Shown in pieces: positions 231 to 9,383 of a stretch of 10,795 bases of DNA. The notes beneath the pieces were generated by a model. The model worked only from the letters and a program-made list of their open reading frames with translations. It made no database searches and had not been told where the DNA came from. The DNA lies in assembly GCA_041288095.1 (NCBI GenBank), contig JBGGMJ010000125.1, positions 1-10,795 of the forward strand, read 5' to 3'. The stretch's first letter is position 1, and every line of letters starts with the position of its first letter. The translations under genes were made by a program, and so were the position numbers. Source of the DNA: Myxococcota bacterium. GTDB lineage: Bacteria > Myxococcota > XYA12-FULL-58-9 > JALHOP01.

Positions 231-770
231 TTACTCGGGGGCGGTGACCGTCACCTGCTGCGATGCAACTTCACGCGGCTTCTGAGTGGCCGCTTCGACG
301 ATCACCTTGACGTCGTAGTTGCCCGGCGCAAGCGGCACGTTCGTCTCGATCCCGGATCCACACAGGCAACGGCACGGGTTACCGGTGAGCTGCTCGCGCA
401 CCGTGACGACGTTTCCCTCTACGCTCGTCTCGACCGAGCCTTTCAAGCAGCAGGCGTGGCGCACCTTGTGGCTCACGACCACTCCGGCGGACGTCGTGCT
501 GACGTGCACCGCTTCGGTCATGTCGTGTCCGTCGTTCTGGGGAGCGGCAGACCGCGTGGCGCTGGCGCAGCCCTGAACCGTGAAGGTCGGGCTCGTCGCC
601 GGAGCTGGATTCAACGACACAGTAGCCGGTAACACCGGCCGCGGTGGTGGCATTGGGGCGTCGGCACCCGCGAGCGTGGGGCCGCTATCAGACACCGGGG
701 CTTCCACTGTAGCGGACTTAGTGCACGCTATCGCGAACACAGCGAAGACTGTCAGGCAGAGCTTCTTCAC
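231..770 (-). CDS. Lipoprotein (179 aa) with a Pro-rich linker and a beta-rich C-terminal domain carrying CC and CxCxC motifs
   Basis: The likely start is GTG at 770 (MKKLCLTVFAVFAIAC, lipobox), overlapping the clostripain TGA as GTGA. It is followed by a PMPPPRP linker and then HACC...NPCRCLC in a strand-rich domain. Confidence 0.8.
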   Translation of the reverse strand: MKKLCLTVFAVFAIACTKSATVEAPVSDSGPTLAGADAPMPPPRPVLPATVSLNPAPATSPTFTVQGCASATRSAAPQNDGHDMTEAVHVSTTSAGVVVSHKVRHACCLKGSVETSVEGNVVTVREQLTGNPCRCLCGSGIETNVPLAPGNYDVKVIVEAATQKPREVASQQVTVTAPE

Positions 771-2779
771 AGCGGCGGCCAGTTCCGCTCGAGCGACGAG
801 ACGGCGTCTCCGTCCCCCGTCGAGCCCGTGGCGAACAAGAGCGTGAACGCTTCCCAACTCGCGTTACCCAGCACGAGCGAATACGCGAGCGACAGAGCCT
901 CGGTCGGGTCGAACGCCACGGAATCCACCAAAATGAACTCGATACCGTTGTCCGTGAGCAGGCCCTGCACCGCGTAGAGCGCCGAGCCCACTTCGGGCGT
1001 CAGCTCAGCGTAGCCAGCGTCGCTGTACTGATAGAGCGTCGACTGCTGCGGCACGCCGTTCGTGTCGTAAGTGACGATGTAGATCGCCGAGGTCGCCGTG
1101 GACTCGCCCGGCCGCTGATAGAAGAAGGGAATCGCCGCGAGCGTCGTGCCATCGCCGGCTTCCTGGAAGCTGAGGTAGCCGAACACCGAGTCGACGCCCT
1201 GCGTGATGGTCAACACGTAACCGTCCCAGGCGCCGACGACGTAGCGGTCTGCATCGAGAACGCCGAACGAGTCGCCAAGCACGAAGATGTTGTCGCCCTG
1301 CGTGACCCCGTAATAGAGCCCGGTCTCGACGACGTTGACCTCCGTGCCGGCTTCGAGCTGAGCGCCGTAGAGGTAGGCGCTGCCACTGCTCGCGATCTGA
1401 ACCAGGACCGGGTCCGCGGTGAACCTGGGGACGACATCGCCACCGGTATGGGCGGCGCTTTGCGCGGTCTCGAGGAAGTTGCGCCAGGCGTTGATGCCGG
1501 GGACGGAGTCGTAGGCCGCGTTGTAGGCACTGCGGTAAGGCGGCCAGTAGACCGCGATGCCGGTGGCCGAAGCAGTGGTGCGGCCGCTCGTCTTGGCGAT
1601 GACAGCGGCCTGAATCGCCGCGGTCAATTGATTCGCCGAAGTCGCAAGCGTCGGCACGGACGCCGCGATAGCGGAAGCAATGTTGCCCAGGTCGAGCATG
1701 TTCGCCGAAGCGGACCCAGAAGGATCACGGCCGAACTCCAGGGCCTCGTCGCGGGCGCGCACGACCACAGGGGTCACGGAGTTGTCACCGACGAGCGCGT
1801 TGTCCATCGCGTGCAAGGCGCGTTCGACTGCCTTCAGGTTGTAGAGGTCGACCAGCGACAAGGTGATGTTGTCGTCGGTGTTTTCGGTATCGGCCTGAGC
1901 GGCAAAACCGGCGATCAGTGCTTGGCCAAGAGCCGTCACGGTCGAGGTCCCAGTGACCGAATCCAACGCGCGGTAGTCCCAGCCATGTCCAGGCTCGAGC
2001 TCTTCGGAGGCAAGCAGGAACTCGGCATAGGGGCGCAGCGCGAGCCCCGTCTCGAGCGCGCCCATCAGGCACGCATCGAATCCGAGGAGATTGATGCTCG
2101 TGCGACCGAGCGTCGACAGCGCCACCTCGAGTCCCAAGGCGGTCTCGGGCATCGTCAGCGCGTCGTAGTTATCCGAAAAGTCGGCGCCGAAGCCCGGCCA
2201 GGCGCTGCCGTGGTCCCAGAGAATGACGGCCAGCTTGTCCGCGGGATACGTCTGCGCACCCCAAACGATGAAGTCGGAGAGTCGCGCGCTCTGGCCGTGA
2301 TTGAGCTCGCCTAAGTCAGACACCTGCGTCAGCGACCCCTCGTTCACCAGCAGGCGCTTCGTCGAGGTAAAGTTGCCGAGCCCGCCGATACCACCGTCGG
2401 AGAAGTCCTCGGCGCGATCGATCTGCACCGCGATGTTGAAGCCGGCGCGCGTGCCGACGACCATCATCTCCTCGAGATCGAGGAGAGCGAACGGCTCGAG
2501 GTCGTTGTCGGCGACCATGTACACGAGGAAGGTCCACGAAGCGCCGCCGCTCGTGTGGACCCTCTCCGGGTCGTTGATGCCGGGAGGCGGATCGTGGGGC
2601 GTGCCTTGGTTGGTGTCGTCGTCACCACCGTCGTTGTCGCCGGTGTTGTCGTTGTCGCTATCGTTGTCGCTGTCTCCAGGACCGCGATCATCGTCGTCGG
2701 CCTTTCCGTCACCGCCACACGCCGCGAGCGACGTGACGAACGCCAAGAACACGACTCCGAGCCAACTGCGATACGACAT
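767..2779 (-). CDS. Clostripain-family (peptidase C11) cysteine protease lipoprotein with a C-terminal extension
   Basis: Motifs WTFLVYMVADNDLE, WDHG (catalytic His, 2210-2212), GFDACLM (catalytic Cys, 2069-2071) and ASEELEPGHGWDY are present. Lipobox LAAC. A GGAGG SD precedes ATG 2779 (alternative start GTG 2782). Confidence 0.93.
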   Translation of the reverse strand: MSYRSWLGVVFLAFVTSLAACGGDGKADDDDRGPGDSDNDSDNDNTGDNDGGDDDTNQGTPHDPPPGINDPERVHTSGGASWTFLVYMVADNDLEPFALLDLEEMMVVGTRAGFNIAVQIDRAEDFSDGGIGGLGNFTSTKRLLVNEGSLTQVSDLGELNHGQSARLSDFIVWGAQTYPADKLAVILWDHGSAWPGFGADFSDNYDALTMPETALGLEVALSTLGRTSINLLGFDACLMGALETGLALRPYAEFLLASEELEPGHGWDYRALDSVTGTSTVTALGQALIAGFAAQADTENTDDNITLSLVDLYNLKAVERALHAMDNALVGDNSVTPVVVRARDEALEFGRDPSGSASANMLDLGNIASAIAASVPTLATSANQLTAAIQAAVIAKTSGRTTASATGIAVYWPPYRSAYNAAYDSVPGINAWRNFLETAQSAAHTGGDVVPRFTADPVLVQIASSGSAYLYGAQLEAGTEVNVVETGLYYGVTQGDNIFVLGDSFGVLDADRYVVGAWDGYVLTITQGVDSVFGYLSFQEAGDGTTLAAIPFFYQRPGESTATSAIYIVTYDTNGVPQQSTLYQYSDAGYAELTPEVGSALYAVQGLLTDNGIEFILVDSVAFDPTEALSLAYSLVLGNASWEAFTLLFATGSTGDGDAVSSLERNWPPL
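2603..2698 (-). repeat. Asp/Asn-rich low-complexity linker inside the clostripain gene
   Basis: DDDDRGPGDSDNDSDNDNTGDNDGGDDDTNQ, encoded by degenerate GACAAC/GACAGC iterations. Confidence 0.8.
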
Positions 2780-2789
2780 CACGCGACCT

Positions 2790-3416: not shown

Positions 3417-4916
3417 GTGGAGACTAGCGCCGCCCCCAAGGCAGCAGCACTCGACGGAACCCTGCGCGCGGTGATCGCGGCCGATCGCCTTGCGATATCG
3501 GAAGCGGGTGAGGGCAAGGAGCTGCTGCACAGCCGGCTCGTCGTGTTCTACGCGTACTTCGCCGCGTTCGGGCTCTGCGGCACCGTCTTCAGCCGACTGC
3601 GCACGCCTCCGGTCGACCCCGAGAAGTTCGCGTTCGTGCTCGACATGCAGCTCGCGTGCGCCATGGCGCTTTGCGCGGTGTTCGTCTCGCTCAAATACTG
3701 GATTCGCGAAACACCGGCGATGCGGGCAATCGACTTGTTCGCTACAGCGGTCGTCGCGACCACGGCGGTCGTGGCCTTGTACGTCGTGCCTCGAACGTTG
3801 TCGGTCGACGTCACGGTCGTGTCGTTCTTCATCCTCTTCTTCGTGCTGCGAGCCGCGCTGGTACCGAGCAAGCCCTGGCAGGCCACTCTGGTGGCGACAG
3901 TGTCCGCGATACCGTTCACGATTGGGTTCGCGGCGATGTACACGCGCGCGGATGTGTTCGAGCCCCAAGCGGCAACTCTCGCCGCCATGCGCGCGATGTT
4001 CGGTGGCATCGTTGGCGTTTATATCGTCTCGAAGACGATCTACGGCTTGCGCCAGGTCGTCCAGCACGTGGTGCAGCTCGGTCAGTACGTGGTGCACGAG
4101 AAGATTGGCGAAGGCGGGATGGGCGCGGTCTATCGCGCGAGCCACGCTATGCTGAAGCGTCCCACCGCCATCAAGTTGATCTCGCCCGAGCACGCGAGTG
4201 AGGTCGCGGTCGCGCGCTTCGAGCGCGAGGTGATGGCCGCGAGCCGCCTGACGCACCCGAACACCGTCGCCATCTACGACTTCGGTCGCACACGCGGGGG
4301 CGTGTTCTACTACGCGATGGAGCTGCTCGACGGACAAGACCTGGGCCGCCTCGTGGAGAAAGAGGGCGCCCAGCCTCTATCGCGGACACTCGATATTCTG
4401 ACCCAGCTCACCGCCGCGCTCGCGGAGGCGCACGACGCTGGGCTCATCCATCGCGACGTGAAGCCACAGAACATCATGTTGTGCACACGCGGCGGCATGA
4501 GCGACTTCGTGAAGGTGTTGGACTTCGGGTTGGTCAAAGACGTCTCGACGCCCGAGGCCGCCAAGCTCACACGTGAAATGTCGGTCGCCGGCACGCCGCT
4601 CTACATGGCCCCGGAGACGATTCTCGCCTCCGACTCGGTCGGTCCACCGGTGGATATCTACGCGGTCGGCGGCGTCGCTTACTTCTTGTTATGTGGTCGG
4701 GCGCCGTTCGAAGGCAGCAGCTCGGTCGAGCTCTGGGCCAATCACCTCCACACCGTCCCCGACCCGCCCTCGCGACACGCCAGGGTGCCCGCCGAAGTCG
4801 ACGAGCTGGTCATGCAGTGTCTCGCCAAGGACCCAACGAAGCGGCCCTCCGCCCGGGAGCTCCGCCAAAGGCTGCTGGCGCTCTCTGGAGGCCAATTGGC
4901 GGCCCCCGTAGCCTGA
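3417..4916 (+). CDS. Membrane-bound Hanks-type Ser/Thr protein kinase (about 6 N-terminal TM helices)
   Basis: IGEGGMGAVY, AIK, HRDVKPQN, DFG, GTPLYMAPE and DIYAVG are all intact. Six hydrophobic segments lie in roughly residues 40-205. Confidence 0.96.
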   Translation: METSAAPKAAALDGTLRAVIAADRLAISEAGEGKELLHSRLVVFYAYFAAFGLCGTVFSRLRTPPVDPEKFAFVLDMQLACAMALCAVFVSLKYWIRETPAMRAIDLFATAVVATTAVVALYVVPRTLSVDVTVVSFFILFFVLRAALVPSKPWQATLVATVSAIPFTIGFAAMYTRADVFEPQAATLAAMRAMFGGIVGVYIVSKTIYGLRQVVQHVVQLGQYVVHEKIGEGGMGAVYRASHAMLKRPTAIKLISPEHASEVAVARFEREVMAASRLTHPNTVAIYDFGRTRGGVFYYAMELLDGQDLGRLVEKEGAQPLSRTLDILTQLTAALAEAHDAGLIHRDVKPQNIMLCTRGGMSDFVKVLDFGLVKDVSTPEAAKLTREMSVAGTPLYMAPETILASDSVGPPVDIYAVGGVAYFLLCGRAPFEGSSSVELWANHLHTVPDPPSRHARVPAEVDELVMQCLAKDPTKRPSARELRQRLLALSGGQLAAPVA

Positions 4917-5488: not shown

Positions 5489-6133
5489 ATGCGCACCGCT
5501 CTCGTCATCGTCCTGGGGTCCATCATGGCAACTGCTTGCGGTCACGGTCACCACGGGCACCACGAGAAGCGCTTCGAGGGAGCCGAGGCCTGGGCGGAGG
5601 TCTTCGATGATCCGAAGCGCGATGAATGGCAGCGGCCGCAAGCAGTCGTCGACGCGATGGAGCTCACCCCCGCGATGACGGTCGCCGACATCGGCGCCGG
5701 CACGGGCTACTTCACCATGCGCATCGCGCGTGCCGTCCCGCGGGGCGAGGTCTACGGCGTCGACGTCGAGCCCGACATGGTCCGCTATCTCGGAGAGCGC
5801 GCCAAGCGGGAAGAGGTCACCAACGTGCGTCCGGTGCTCTCCACCGCCGACGATCCGAAGCTGCCCGCCGAGGTCGACCGGGTGCTGGTCGTCGACACCT
5901 ACCATCACATCGCCAAGCGCGAGCCTTACTTCGCGGCGTTGCGCGCGAATCTCAAGCCCGATGGCCGCGTCGTCATCGTCGACTTCACGGAGTCATCGCC
6001 GGTCGGCCCGCCACCCGAGCACCGCCTCGCACAAGGCGTCGTCGAGGGCGAGATGATGACCGCGGGTTACCGCCTCGTCGCTTCACCGCCGCTCCTACCC
6101 AACCAGTACGTCCTCATTTTCACGCCGCGCTAG
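5489..6133 (+). CDS. Class I SAM-dependent methyltransferase with a lipoprotein signal and His-rich N-terminus
   Basis: Motif I VADIGAGTGYF, motif II YGVDVEPDM, plus VDTYHH and LKPDGRVVIVDF. The N-terminus is MRTALVIVLGSIMATAC-GHGHHGHH. Confidence 0.92.
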   Translation: MRTALVIVLGSIMATACGHGHHGHHEKRFEGAEAWAEVFDDPKRDEWQRPQAVVDAMELTPAMTVADIGAGTGYFTMRIARAVPRGEVYGVDVEPDMVRYLGERAKREEVTNVRPVLSTADDPKLPAEVDRVLVVDTYHHIAKREPYFAALRANLKPDGRVVIVDFTESSPVGPPPEHRLAQGVVEGEMMTAGYRLVASPPLLPNQYVLIFTPR

Positions 6134-7785
6134 TTGCGCAGCGCCGCCGTCTCACGACGCTTCGCCGCGAACTCCGCGTCGGGTTTCCACTCGACCCACT
6201 TCGCGTCTTGCGCGACGCGGTAGCCGAGCCTGAAACCGATTCGCAGGTCCTCCACTCCGCCGGCGAGATCCCAATCGGCGCCAACGACGTCGGAGGGCTT
6301 GTGGTAATCCTTCGCGAAGAACTTCGCGGACTGCTCGTCGCCGAAGCCCTTTGCCTTACCGATGTAGTCGTTGCCCTTGTAGAGCCAGAGCGCGGGCACC
6401 CCCGCTTTGGCGAACTCGAAGCTGTCGCCGCGATAAGGGGTACCGCGCTCCGGGTGCGCATCGGCGACGAGCACGCGTCCCACTTGTTTCGTGACCCACT
6501 CGAGCGCCTCGTCGAGCGTCGAGACGCGGTCACCGACGAGCTGCAGATCCTTGGTGCGGCCCCAGGGATTCACCCCGTCGAGGTTGATGTTCGCGAGTGT
6601 CCGCGCCAGCGGATACAGCGGATTCTCGACGTAATACTTGGCGCCGAGGAGGCCGCGCTCTTCACCCGTGGTCGCCACGAACACGACCGTGGCCTTGGCG
6701 GGCTTGTTCAACGCCTTGAACGCTTCGGCGATCTCGAGCATCCCCGACGTGCCGGATGCGTTGTCCAGCGCGCCGTGAAACACCTTGTCGCCCTCGCGCT
6801 TGTCGTCGCGGCCAAAGTGATCCCAGTGCGCCGAGTAGACGAGATAGCGCGCGGCGTCGGCCGCTTCGCTGCCGCTGATCTTGCCGATGACGTTGTGTGA
6901 TTGGACTTGTCGCTCGGTCCGCTCGAGCGTCATGCTGAGCTTCTGGCGCAGTGGCACCGGCTTGAAGTCGCGCAACGCCGCCGCCTTGGTGAGCGCCTCG
7001 AGGTCGAGACCGGAGTCCTTGAAGAGCCTGCGCGCGGCATCCTCGGTGATCCAGGACTCGATTGCCGCCCGGCCCGCGTTCTTGTCCGCCGCGACGGTCG
7101 CGAAGTTCTCGCGACCCCAGCTGTCGACGACGACGCTCCACGGGTACGCCGCCCGCTCGGTGTTGTGAATGATGAGCGCCGCGACCGCGCCCTTCTTGGC
7201 GGCGATCTCGAACTTGTAGGTCCAGCGGCCGTAGTAGGTCATGCCGGGACCTTTGAAGAGCTTGGGATCGAGCTTCGTCGGGTCCGCCGGGTCAGCGACC
7301 TGAGGGTCGTTGATGAGCATGACGACCGTCTTGCCGCGCACGTCGACGTCCTTGAAGTCGTCCCAGCCGTACTCGGGGGCGACGACACCGTAGCCAACGA
7401 AGACCATGTCCGTCTTGTCGATGGAGACCTTGGGCACCTGCCGCTGCGAGACGGCGACGAGATCACGATGGGCGAGGAGCTCTTCGCGTTTCCCCTGGGT
7501 GTCGAGCTCGGCGCGGTAGGTCGAGACGGCGCCGACGAGCGGCACGCGCTGCAGATAGGTGCCGTCGGGGTTACCCGGCTCGAGGCCAATGGCCTTCATC
7601 TGGTCGACCAGGTAGGCGACCGTCACTTCCTCGCCCTTGGTACCCGGCGAGCGGCCTTCGAAAACGTCGGATGCCATGGTTTGGATGCGCTCGAGCAACC
7701 CCTTGGACTCGATGGCCTTCTCGGCGGTCTGGAGCGGGCTCATCGGCGGTGCGGCAAGGAACAGAGCGACAATGAATGGGGTCAC
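6130..7785 (-). CDS. Secreted M28-family zinc peptidase with a PA domain
   Basis: Metal-ligand motifs SAHWDH, GALDNASG, GEERG, NINLD and DYH are present. The PA insert has VFVGYGVVAPEYGWDDF and YYGRWTYKFE. A GGGAG SD precedes GTG 7785. Confidence 0.95.
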   Translation of the reverse strand: MTPFIVALFLAAPPMSPLQTAEKAIESKGLLERIQTMASDVFEGRSPGTKGEEVTVAYLVDQMKAIGLEPGNPDGTYLQRVPLVGAVSTYRAELDTQGKREELLAHRDLVAVSQRQVPKVSIDKTDMVFVGYGVVAPEYGWDDFKDVDVRGKTVVMLINDPQVADPADPTKLDPKLFKGPGMTYYGRWTYKFEIAAKKGAVAALIIHNTERAAYPWSVVVDSWGRENFATVAADKNAGRAAIESWITEDAARRLFKDSGLDLEALTKAAALRDFKPVPLRQKLSMTLERTERQVQSHNVIGKISGSEAADAARYLVYSAHWDHFGRDDKREGDKVFHGALDNASGTSGMLEIAEAFKALNKPAKATVVFVATTGEERGLLGAKYYVENPLYPLARTLANINLDGVNPWGRTKDLQLVGDRVSTLDEALEWVTKQVGRVLVADAHPERGTPYRGDSFEFAKAGVPALWLYKGNDYIGKAKGFGDEQSAKFFAKDYHKPSDVVGADWDLAGGVEDLRIGFRLGYRVAQDAKWVEWKPDAEFAAKRRETAALRN

Positions 7786-7834
7786 TAGGGGCTCCCTGGT
7801 TGCCGCGGCGGGGTATCACCCTGGCCGCGTGTGA

Positions 7835-7890
7835 ACAACCAGACACCGCGCGAGGACAACCAGGCACCACCCGCGAAGCAACCTTGACCC
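7835..7890 (+). repeat. Three imperfect direct repeats with a CAACC core at 21-22 bp spacing in a divergent intergenic region
   Basis: ACAACCAGACACC (7835), ACAACCAGGCACC (7856) and GCAACCTTGACCC (7878). Confidence 0.55.
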
Positions 7891-7930
7891 CGAGACGCCG
7901 ACATTGAGGAGCCGTCAATTGGGAGCCCTC

Positions 7931-8254
7931 ATGACCAGCGACATCCGCCTTTCCAGCGTCTCGAATCGCACCCCCGACATCTGGCCGAGCAACATGGTTT
8001 CGCCGATGGCCGCTCCGTTCATCACCATGGTGAACAAGCTGTTCAGCAGCCAGGGCCCGCTCTCGAGCTACGAGCTCCAAAGCATCGAGCTCAAGGGCTC
8101 GCACTTCACCATCGGCGTCCCTTACGGTTGGCAGGCCGGTGTGCAGAAGGCGGTCGGTGACGTCATCAGGCGCCACGCCGCCGGCGACGTGAACACTCAG
8201 GGTTGGACCTTCGAGATCACCGACACGTCGAACAACGAGCTGCCGCGGGGCTGA
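7931..8254 (+). CDS. Hypothetical cytoplasmic protein (107 aa)
   Basis: A GGGAG SD at 7921-7925 precedes ATG 7931, which is preferred over the track start at 7904. Third codon positions are strongly G/C-biased. I recognise no motif. Confidence 0.8.
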   Translation: MTSDIRLSSVSNRTPDIWPSNMVSPMAAPFITMVNKLFSSQGPLSSYELQSIELKGSHFTIGVPYGWQAGVQKAVGDVIRRHAAGDVNTQGWTFEITDTSNNELPRG

Positions 8255-8255
8255 G

Positions 8256-9383
8256 CTACTGCCGGTTCATCCAACCGGCAATCGCAACGAGCCAGGCGAC
8301 ACGTTCGCCGGCTCGTCCGCTATGACGTTGCGGCTCCGGCGTAATACCGTGACGCGATAGGATCGGCTCCATCTGGCCGGGCTTGCTGCGCGTGAAGTTC
8401 GCGTAGGCCGCCTTGACGCTGACGGCGTCGCGGAACGGCGCGAGCGCCAGGAGCTGCCGCATCGTCGGATGGTTCCAGGTGACGAGCGCGTCGCTCGGTC
8501 GCACGAAGTCGCGGATAGCATCGCCGAGCTCGCTGGGCGTGATGCCCGCTTCGACACGGGCGCGACTGAGCCCCATGTAGTCGAAGCGCCTGTCGTCGAC
8601 CGCGGCACCGGGGCGGATGAGCCACTCACGATGCTCGCCGTCGGCGAGGCGCTGCAGGCAGACTTGCACGACCGCTTCGTGTTCCACGCCGTCGGCCTGG
8701 TAGACGACGTATTCGGTGTATCCGGCGACGAGCGCATCCCGATCCCGAAGCAGCGGGTGCGGCCGGAGCTTGCGCATGGGCGGTCGCTTGTGTCGGTAGG
8801 AGCCATTCGGCGGCCGCTCCGTATAGGCGATCTGTTGATCGATCATGCGCGCGAAGCGCGAGAGCAGCGCGTCCCAACCATTGGTTTCGGGCTCGAGCGC
8901 CACGAGCGCATGCACCAGCGCTTCCAACGTCGAGACGTAGTTGTCCTTGGGCTCGCGGCGGATGCGGTAGTTGCTGGGTGGCGGCTGCGCGAGCTTCACG
9001 TGCGGCAAGTCCGCGAGCCACGGGTTGTCGCGATAGAGGACCTTCGCCTGCGACCAGGTGCCGTCGATGGCGACGAGGGCGGTCGGCCGCTTCGATGCGT
9101 CGAGCTCGCTCACATCGCGGGCTTTCGCGGATGGGTAAAGGAGCGCCGCGCCCGGGGGAATCATCGAGGGTGTCACCTTGAGGTCCCAGGCGACGTGTAC
9201 CTCGCACCGTTCCAAACCCAGCCGCGCCAGCCGCTCGGTGCCCAAGGCGTGCCGTACCTCGCGCGGATGCTGGATGATCACCGCCTGTGTGCGATTACGG
9301 ACGGCCGGCCCCCCGCAGACGCAGACGACGGCGGGCTTGAAGCAGCGGTAGCAGTAAGCGCGTTGGGGTGAAGCTTCGGTCAT
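8256..9383 (-). CDS. DTW-domain protein (TapT/YfiP-like tRNA-uridine aminocarboxypropyltransferase) with an extra C-terminal domain
   Basis: N-terminal CxxC-x6-CxC, then QHPRE, LLYPS, IDGTWSQAK, YRIRREP and STLEA. About 185 additional C-terminal residues follow. Confidence 0.9.
   Translation of the reverse strand: MTEASPQRAYCYRCFKPAVVCVCGGPAVRNRTQAVIIQHPREVRHALGTERLARLGLERCEVHVAWDLKVTPSMIPPGAALLYPSAKARDVSELDASKRPTALVAIDGTWSQAKVLYRDNPWLADLPHVKLAQPPPSNYRIRREPKDNYVSTLEALVHALVALEPETNGWDALLSRFARMIDQQIAYTERPPNGSYRHKRPPMRKLRPHPLLRDRDALVAGYTEYVVYQADGVEHEAVVQVCLQRLADGEHREWLIRPGAAVDDRRFDYMGLSRARVEAGITPSELGDAIRDFVRPSDALVTWNHPTMRQLLALAPFRDAVSVKAAYANFTRSKPGQMEPILSRHGITPEPQRHSGRAGERVAWLVAIAGWMNRQ

Follow-up and report, generated by a model that had tools for sequence, protein, structure and literature searches.

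E. coli TapT (YfiP) is a DTW-domain enzyme that transfers a 3-amino-3-carboxypropyl (acp) group to U47 of tRNA, and its first structures date from 2025 (PMC12630136). Cysteines C31, C34, C41 and C43 form its zinc finger, residues T70, P111 and T182 contact S-adenosylmethionine (SAM), and mutating D137 or W140 of its D/E-x-T/S-W motif abolishes most SAM binding and activity (PMC12630136). An arginine patch preceding the zinc finger (Patch1; R16, R19, R24 and R27) holds the tRNA: the R16A/R19A/R24A/R27A mutant loses about 50-fold in dissociation constant for tRNA and has no activity left (PMC12630136), and deletion of 20 N-terminal residues removes 3-(3-amino-3-carboxypropyl)uridine (acp3U) at position 47 in vivo (PMC7026641). 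A DTW domain joined to a nuclease-like domain was described by Burroughs and Aravind in 2014 (Front Genet 5:424, PMC4275035), who found, in planctomycetes and delta-proteobacteria, DTWD2-family proteins that carry an inactive 3'->5' exonuclease domain as a fusion partner. These authors proposed RNA binding for the inactive domain and saw in the fusion an argument for the DTW domain being an RNase (PMC4275035), a view of DTW since superseded by the acp-transferase assignments (PMC7026641, PMC6895100). Here we analyze such a fusion gene, located at positions 8256 to 9383 on the minus strand of a 10,795-nucleotide stretch of DNA from a Myxococcota bacterium (contig JBGGMJ010000125.1, assembly GCA_041288095.1; the whole stretch is hereafter called the window).

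We propose, with a probability of about one half, that the encoded protein is a SAM-dependent, TapT-type tRNA acp transferase that grips its substrate with a basic linker and carries a dead exonuclease domain as an RNA-contacting accessory. We infer the acp transferase activity, the binding of RNA by the linker and the C-terminal domain (C-domain), and the identity of what is bound. The architecture itself has been recorded in the literature since 2014, and the preliminary description, made from the letters of the window, was mistaken in taking the fusion to be undescribed. The DTWD2-family fusions reported then match the window protein in architecture, taxa, inactivity call and proposed RNA-binding role (PMC4275035). 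Their treatment consists of one sentence and a figure and predates the discovery of the acp transferases; the passages that concern the fusion hold no residue mapping, structure model, comparison of linker and Patch1 or loss pattern (PMC4275035). The relevant passages of the two 2019 papers do not mention the fusion (PMC7026641, PMC6895100). A full-text literature search for TapT or DTW together with an exonuclease-like domain, which did not cover subscription journals, returned PMC4275035 as the only relevant paper and no experimental study of the fusion.

Read from its ATG start, the fusion open reading frame (ORF) yields a protein of 375 aa; on the plus strand, stops interrupt the same interval. 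Homologues of the same length, 375 aa, share 84-88% identity over 100% of the protein. Every peptide quoted in the preliminary description is present in the translation (YRHKRPPMRKLRP, LVAGYTEY, VVQVCLQRL, WLIRP, YMGLSRARVEAG, IRDFVRPSDALVTWN, ILSRHGI and GRAGERV), and translation also confirmed the coordinates of every part:

8256 to 9383, minus strand: whole coding sequence, 375 aa and TAG stop (8256-8258); TapT-like DTW enzyme fused to a pseudo-exonuclease domain.
8832 to 9362, minus strand: DTW (TDD/SPOUT-like) acp-transferase domain, residues 8-184, assigned by Pfam PF03942 and by sequence and fold likeness to TapT 9kyt.
9315 to 9353, minus strand: Cys4 zinc knuckle CxxCx6CxC (C11, C14, C21, C23), read from the translation and aligned with the zinc-finger cysteines of E. 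coli TapT.
9054 to 9065, minus strand: DGTW motif, D107 to W110, the D/E-x-T/S-W signature; invariant in 50 of 50 sequences and aligned to E. coli D137-W140.
8736 to 8816, minus strand: basic linker, residues 190-216 (RPPNGSYRHKRPPMRKLRPHPLLRDRD), a lower-confidence part of the model with block means of 68-82 in predicted local distance difference test (pLDDT).
8259 to 8735, minus strand: pseudo-exonuclease domain of predicted DEDDh fold, residues 217-375, from AlphaFold2, Foldseek, profile and ESM Atlas matches.
8712 to 8720, minus strand: ExoI equivalent Y222-T-E224 (DxE changed to YxE, Glu retained), from alignments to 2p1j, 8fyc, 5z9x and 7n8v.
8460 to 8477, minus strand: ExoII equivalent W303-N-H-P-T-M308 (HNxxxD changed to WNxxTM, Asp lost), from profile alignments.
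8412 to 8414, minus strand: K324, a near-invariant Lys after strand 5 (K in 59 of 62 sequences, R in 3 of 62).
8301 to 8318, minus strand: ExoIII equivalent G356-R-A-G-E-R361 at the start of the last helix (356-374), with no His and no conserved Asp, from the hhalign alignment to DnaQ.

The DTW half is an intact domain, as initially described. Pfam DTW (PF03942) matches residues 8-184 with an E value of 6.5e-40 and 137.4 bits against a cutoff of 33.7, and the only solved structure matched by sequence is E. coli TapT (9kyt, phmmer E value 5.3e-7). In a Foldseek search with the full-length model, the TapT entries 9kyt_B, 9kz5_B and 9kza_A were matched at E values of 2e-6 to 2e-5, with template modeling (TM) scores by target of 0.69-0.70 and 19-20% identity. 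With TapT (PDB 9kyt, 9kz5, 9kza), to which its sequence similarity is low, the window protein has in common the DTW/SPOUT-like fold, the Cys4 zinc motif, the residues that contact SAM and the DGTW motif. Its cysteines C11, C14, C21 and C23 align to C31, C34, C41 and C43 of TapT and are at least 90% conserved in a family alignment of 50 sequences; the CxxCx6CxC motif that they form has been described for bacterial YfiP-like proteins (PMC7026641, PMC12630136). Residues T49, P84, D107, W110 and T152, invariant in all 50 sequences, align to T70, P111, D137, W140 and T182 of TapT. Because the functional residues of TapT are conserved, the DTW half is very probably an active acp transferase. What the E. 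coli enzyme lacks is the basic linker and the 160-aa C-domain that follow.

Residues 185-375 have no Pfam or NCBIfam match; a single NCBIfam match at an E value of 0.3 was rejected as spurious. The AlphaFold2 model of the full-length protein has a mean pLDDT of 91.2 and a predicted TM score (pTM) of 0.67, and residues 206-375 modeled alone, from an alignment of 62 sequences, reach a pLDDT of 94.2 and a pTM of 0.89. The order of elements in the C-domain model (three long strands, helices, a strand, a helix, a strand, helices and a long terminal helix) agrees with that of DnaQ-like exonucleases. Foldseek with this model gave 190 matches in the PDB at E values of 0.001 or less; the top matches listed, with TM scores by query of 0.54-0.71 and a probability of 1.00, are all DEDDh-type exonucleases or close relatives (Pol III epsilon, ERI2, 3'hExo/ERI1, ERI3, TREX1, the DinG exonuclease domain, Exo X, RNase T, Cap18 and Pop2/Caf1). 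In the ESM Atlas, the C-domain structure has TM scores of 0.76-0.79 to clusters that carry Pfam RNase_T. A prediction of a homodimer from two C-domain copies scored 0.00, which counts neither for nor against a dimer.

Remote sequence homology points the same way. The HMMER profile built from the 62 sequences matches the exonuclease domain of PolC (2p1j) at an E value of 4.7e-4 and Cas2-DEDDh at 1.8e-3, with weaker matches to SDN1 (9.5e-3), ERI2 (0.033) and epsilon (0.3-0.7). Pfam RNase_T (PF00929) does not match the window protein itself and gives weak matches in 13 of the 62 family members, the best at an E value of 0.0021. The hhalign alignment to the exonuclease domain of E. coli DnaQ has an E value of 5e-4 over 136 columns, with a probability of only 31%. 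Taken together, the C-domain has, in its predicted structure, the DnaQ-like DEDDh fold that the preliminary description had read from its sequence pattern, and it shares with the DEDDh 3'-5' exonucleases (Pol III epsilon, RNase T, ERI1/2/3, 3'hExo, TREX1, ExoX) the fold, the order of strands and helices, remote sequence homology and the Glu of ExoI.

This Glu is the only catalytic residue that is kept. Four independent HMMER alignments place YTE on the DxE of ExoI; position 222 is Tyr in 43 of the 62 sequences and acidic in 5%, and E224 is kept in 61, the remaining one having Asp. For ExoII, W303-N304 aligns to the His-Asn pair that opens the motif in PolC and in DnaQ/RNase T, and therefore M308 falls on the catalytic Asp. 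Trp is found at position 303 in 57 of the 62 sequences and Leu at position 308 in 43, and none is acidic at 307 or 308. For ExoIII, H162 of DnaQ (epsilon) lies opposite S355/G356 in hhalign, at the point where the alignment ends. A search of the fetched loci for canonical DEDDh genes from which to build a comparison profile found none. The profile built instead from three E. coli sequences, dnaQ, rnt and orn, gave an alignment that reaches only from ExoI to ExoII, so the mapping of ExoIII rests on hhalign and on the position of the helix, and its register is uncertain by one residue. The register of the preliminary description (His to G356, Ala to A358, Asp to R361) matches the hydrophobic pattern at least as well. 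His is conserved at none of positions 354-357, position 360 is acidic in 23% of the sequences, and position 361 is Arg in 46, His in 5 and Gln in 5.

Compared with DEDDh exonucleases, the ExoI Asp has thus become Tyr, the ExoII Asp has become Leu or Met, and the His and Asp of ExoIII are gone, with Arg in the ExoIII region. Four of the five catalytic positions are lost throughout the family, and none of the 62 sequences has the full DEDDh set. The substitutions listed in the preliminary description are confirmed, with the qualification that the Glu of ExoI is kept. Other columns of the domain are strongly conserved: R245 (56 of 62), Glu or Asp at position 253 (54), N329 (43) and, in the ExoIII region, G356 (59), R357 (58) and A358 (54). 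Position 252 is Phe in 55 sequences and Arg in the window protein. Judged from these residues, the C-domain is predicted to be unable to perform two-metal exonuclease chemistry. Since the catalytic set is lost while other residues are conserved, the domain is constrained for something besides two-metal hydrolysis.

The second difference from TapT lies in the elements that hold tRNA. Only 10 residues, one of them basic, precede the zinc motif in the window protein, and Patch1 is missing. In 166 full-length fusions this stretch has a median length of 12 residues, and its median number of basic residues is 2; Patch1 is a trait of the E. coli enzyme and not of the Pfam DTW family. About half of Patch2 of TapT is kept: K114 and R118 align to R144 and R148, and V115 and D119 replace K145 and K149. 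The linker is basic, as had been noted at first, with a median over the same 166 fusions of 28 residues containing 8 Lys or Arg against 2 Asp or Glu. Because Patch1 is missing while the linker is rich in Lys and Arg, the comparison suggests a shift of the electrostatic grip on tRNA, away from the N-terminus and into the C-terminal linker or tail. That the fusion family is without the N-terminal arginine patch and shows a conserved basic linker in its place is a new observation of this study.

The fusion recurs in many genomes and is conserved. A GTDB search with one genome per species confirmed 587 of 598 pattern matches; the locus counts given here cover the best 80 of the 587, each from a different assembly. 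Both domains lie on one ORF in 73 of these loci, seven have the DTW domain only and none has the C-domain only. By their record labels, which may be unreliable for metagenome-assembled genomes, the 73 fusion loci belong to Myxococcota (31), Planctomycetota (24), Pseudomonadota (5), Bdellovibrionota (2) and Acidobacteriota (1), with 10 unassigned. A word-indexed protein search returned 375 proteins at E values of 0.001 or less; among the 120 matches listed, 116 cover at least 89% of the query at lengths of 363-445 aa. Against the three closest relatives (L001-L003), the ratio of nonsynonymous to synonymous substitution rates (dN/dS) is 0.06-0.16 for the DTW domain, 0.06-0.28 for the linker and 0.14-0.27 for the C-domain, rough values because dS is about 0.8-1.2, near saturation. 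The C-domain is under purifying selection and, being present in 73 of the 80 best related loci, is not an unconserved read-through, the outcome that the preliminary description had said would refute it.

Searching 1.84 billion representatives by HMMER with only the C-domain (residues 206-375) as query gave 200 clusters at E values of 0.001 or less, 22 of them at 1e-10 or less, and no canonical exonucleases. Among 260 gathered proteins, 229 have both domains, 29 the C-domain only, one the DTW domain only and one, a low-complexity false match, neither. We inspected 11 of the C-domain-only proteins. Six begin directly in the C-domain, three with a non-Met first residue (P0129, P0137, P0158) and three with Met (P0207, P0216, P0151); four (P0126, P0181, P0202, P0241) begin with M-(I/V)-D-x-Q, whose Met is conserved in the last helix of the DTW domain; and for P0257 the start lies inside the DTW domain. 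Because their starts fall in the C-domain or at this Met, the inspected proteins look like fragments or internal start calls and not like a separate family, except perhaps for P0207, P0216 and P0151. An ESM Atlas cluster of 64 members, 190-aa Myxococcota proteins, is a further candidate for a stand-alone C-domain. Some family members have long frames or extended termini: proteins P0140 (483 aa) and P0165 (456 aa), and loci L015, L028, L029, L041, L049 and L071, whose open frames measure 634-1053 aa counted from stop to stop.

The C-domain is absent from some relatives inside the fusion clade. One of the seven DTW-only loci (L069) ends at a contig edge. The other six (L042, L043, L050, L058, L068, L072) have a complete DTW gene, in most of the loci around 6001-6650, followed by a short, mostly basic tail; in four of the six, a short Arg/Lys-rich tail stands at the place of the linker. 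A search downstream of the six genes for a remnant of the C-domain gave nothing better than an E value of 0.58. On a quick maximum-likelihood tree of the DTW domain with 81 rows, whose midpoint root serves only for drawing, DTW-only forms are dispersed through the fusions, which requires five state changes, at least two of them forced by well-supported branches. The C-domain thus appears to have been lost repeatedly and cleanly in these relatives, a pattern also new here; since the tree is unrooted, loss is only the more parsimonious reading.

How might such a protein work? In the mechanism that we favor, tRNA would be held by the zinc knuckle, by the partly conserved Patch2 helix (K114, R118) and by the flexible basic linker, which would take over the electrostatic grip of the missing N-terminal arginine patch. 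The tethered dead exonuclease domain would add a contact to RNA through its remodeled former active site (E224, W303, K324, R357, R361), most likely to a single-stranded end such as the 3' terminus of tRNA, and so could add affinity or selectivity without cleavage. In DEDDh enzymes, the Glu of ExoI contacts the terminal nucleotide. A non-cleaving pocket for a terminal nucleotide and phosphate would be expected to have just this Glu, a Trp at the position of the ExoII His and Lys or Arg at the former metal sites. The preliminary description had proposed a tRNA 3'-end reader or specificity module that might give new substrates; the Glu, Trp, Lys and Arg conserved at the old active site are compatible with such a role, which is weakened by the median net charge of 0 and by the dispersed DTW-only relatives.

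There are precedents for this kind of reuse. Exuperantia carries a dead exonuclease-like domain reused as a nucleic-acid binder. Dead DEDD-like domains have also been reported as nucleic-acid binders in the PXL module of PML (PMC13659232) and in Egalitarian (bioRxiv 10.1101/2025.08.03.668247). These domains are reported to combine a DEDD-like fold without catalytic residues with a role in RNA or DNA binding; they differ from the window protein in being eukaryotic, in standing in an unrelated context and in not being joined to an RNA-modifying enzyme, so the analogy is functional only. The RNA-binding proposal of Burroughs and Aravind, made independently, also counts in favor of an RNA-contacting domain (PMC4275035).

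Several observations weigh against the accessory function that we propose. The net charge of the C-domain has a median of 0 and ranges from -10 to +11 over the 166 proteins; a dead domain that is charge-neutral overall is a further new observation. The full-length pTM of 0.67, compared with 0.89 for the C-domain alone, suggests a prediction in which the two domains form no fixed joint surface. The domain appears dispensable, as six DTW-only relatives without a remnant are scattered inside the fusion clade. A basic tail is preserved in four of these six, so the linker may be more important than the C-domain. E224, R357 and R361 could, instead of lining a ligand pocket, form a network of internal salt bridges that compensates for the lost metal site. 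Finally, the gene's surroundings tie it to no particular substrate: a scan of the window for tRNA genes and Rfam families gave no match of either sort, and the fusion has no conserved gene neighborhood, the commonest neighbor family being found in 7 of 81 loci.

Some of these points fit a dead domain that serves as a structural or protein-interaction module (stability, oligomerization or docking) and makes no RNA contact, with Glu and Arg merely filling the metal site. The median net charge of 0 and the apparent repeated loss without remnant in six relatives both favor such a module, and the acidic and basic residues conserved where the active site once was might form pairs among themselves. 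Set against it are the lack of any conserved neighbor that would hint at a protein partner, with the commonest family in only 7 of 81 loci, and the near-invariant Trp at ExoII, of an exposed type, and the near-invariant Lys, which would be more typical of ligand contact than of packing. The reports of nucleic-acid binding by other dead DEDD-like domains (PML PXL, Egalitarian) also speak against it. We regard this explanation as a real, if lesser, possibility.

A bolder form of the RNA-contact proposal, which we consider unlikely, is that the pocket formed by E224, W303, K324, R357 and R361, with Arg in place of the two metals, reads the state of tRNA 3' maturation (CCA or trailer) or another RNA end, so that acp would be placed only on a subset of tRNAs or away from U47. 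If true, the tRNA-modifying enzymes of the DTW/TapT family would include one with a licensing step of a kind not known from any of them.

It is rather improbable that the C-domain sets the specificity and that the fusion retargets acp transfer to another site or RNA, for example a different position in tRNA, a precursor tRNA or the end of an rRNA. The DTW superfamily already covers tRNA U47, tRNA U20/20a and 18S rRNA (PMC6895100, PMC7026641), and the tRNA-binding element Patch1 is absent from the fusion. However, Patch1 is likewise missing in DTW-only relatives from this clade, and its absence therefore does not go with the extra domain; moreover, no genome among the best 80 of 587 has a close second copy that could serve the canonical site, distant paralogues not having been searched for. 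Still less probable is a C-domain that senses a small nucleotide or a ligand resembling a 3'-terminal mononucleotide and regulates acp transfer allosterically: the pocket does retain the Glu that contacts the terminal nucleotide and has gained Arg and Lys residues that could hold a phosphate, but we found no precedent, and both the flexibility of the basic linker and the lower pTM of the full-length model speak against a tight allosteric coupling. A C-domain that is still a nuclease through a non-canonical site is very improbable: E224 is kept in 61 of 62 sequences, but a single Glu cannot hold two metals in the DEDD mechanism, the ExoII Asp position is acidic in 0 of 62, and there is neither a conserved His nor a conserved second or third carboxylate in either ExoIII register.

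The genes around the fusion are functionally unrelated to it. The window has a G+C content of about 65%, and synteny with L001-L003 spans most of it. Downstream on the same strand lies an M28 peptidase gene with a trace of a PA domain (6130-7785, minus strand), and upstream a divergent lipoprotein-like ORF. Farther away are genes for a DUF4920 protein, a methyltransferase, a Ser/Thr protein kinase (3417-4916, plus strand) with a hydrophobic N-terminal part of about 220 aa before the kinase domain, and a clostripain-family (Peptidase_C11) protein (767-2782, minus strand) whose N-terminal region is rich in Asp, Gly and Asn.

Between the stop of the fusion gene and the M28 peptidase gene there are about 410-430 bp (window 7820-8252); the same gap measures only 25 bp in L001, 9 bp in L002 and 133 bp in L003, and the extra stretch has no counterpart in these three closest syntenic relatives. 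It contains a 21-nt tandem pair (7825-7866) and an ORF convergent with the fusion gene (7931-8254, plus strand) of 107 aa, or 116 aa from an upstream TTG. Neither Pfam nor a tblastn search of the fetched loci gave a match to this ORF, and the Atlas gave no usable one. A hairpin with 13-nt arms (8255-8285) overlaps the stop of the DTW fusion gene. A small gene specific to this lineage, or an insertion, could account for the stretch 7820-8252.

The acp3U modification occurs widely in tRNA, and the choice of substrates by TapT is only starting to be understood. The fusion is a natural experiment on modular RNA recognition, in which an arginine-rich N-terminus has been dropped and a basic linker and a pseudo-nuclease gained. 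If the proposed role is correct, it would give the few known dead exonuclease folds that have been turned into binding modules a bacterial member.

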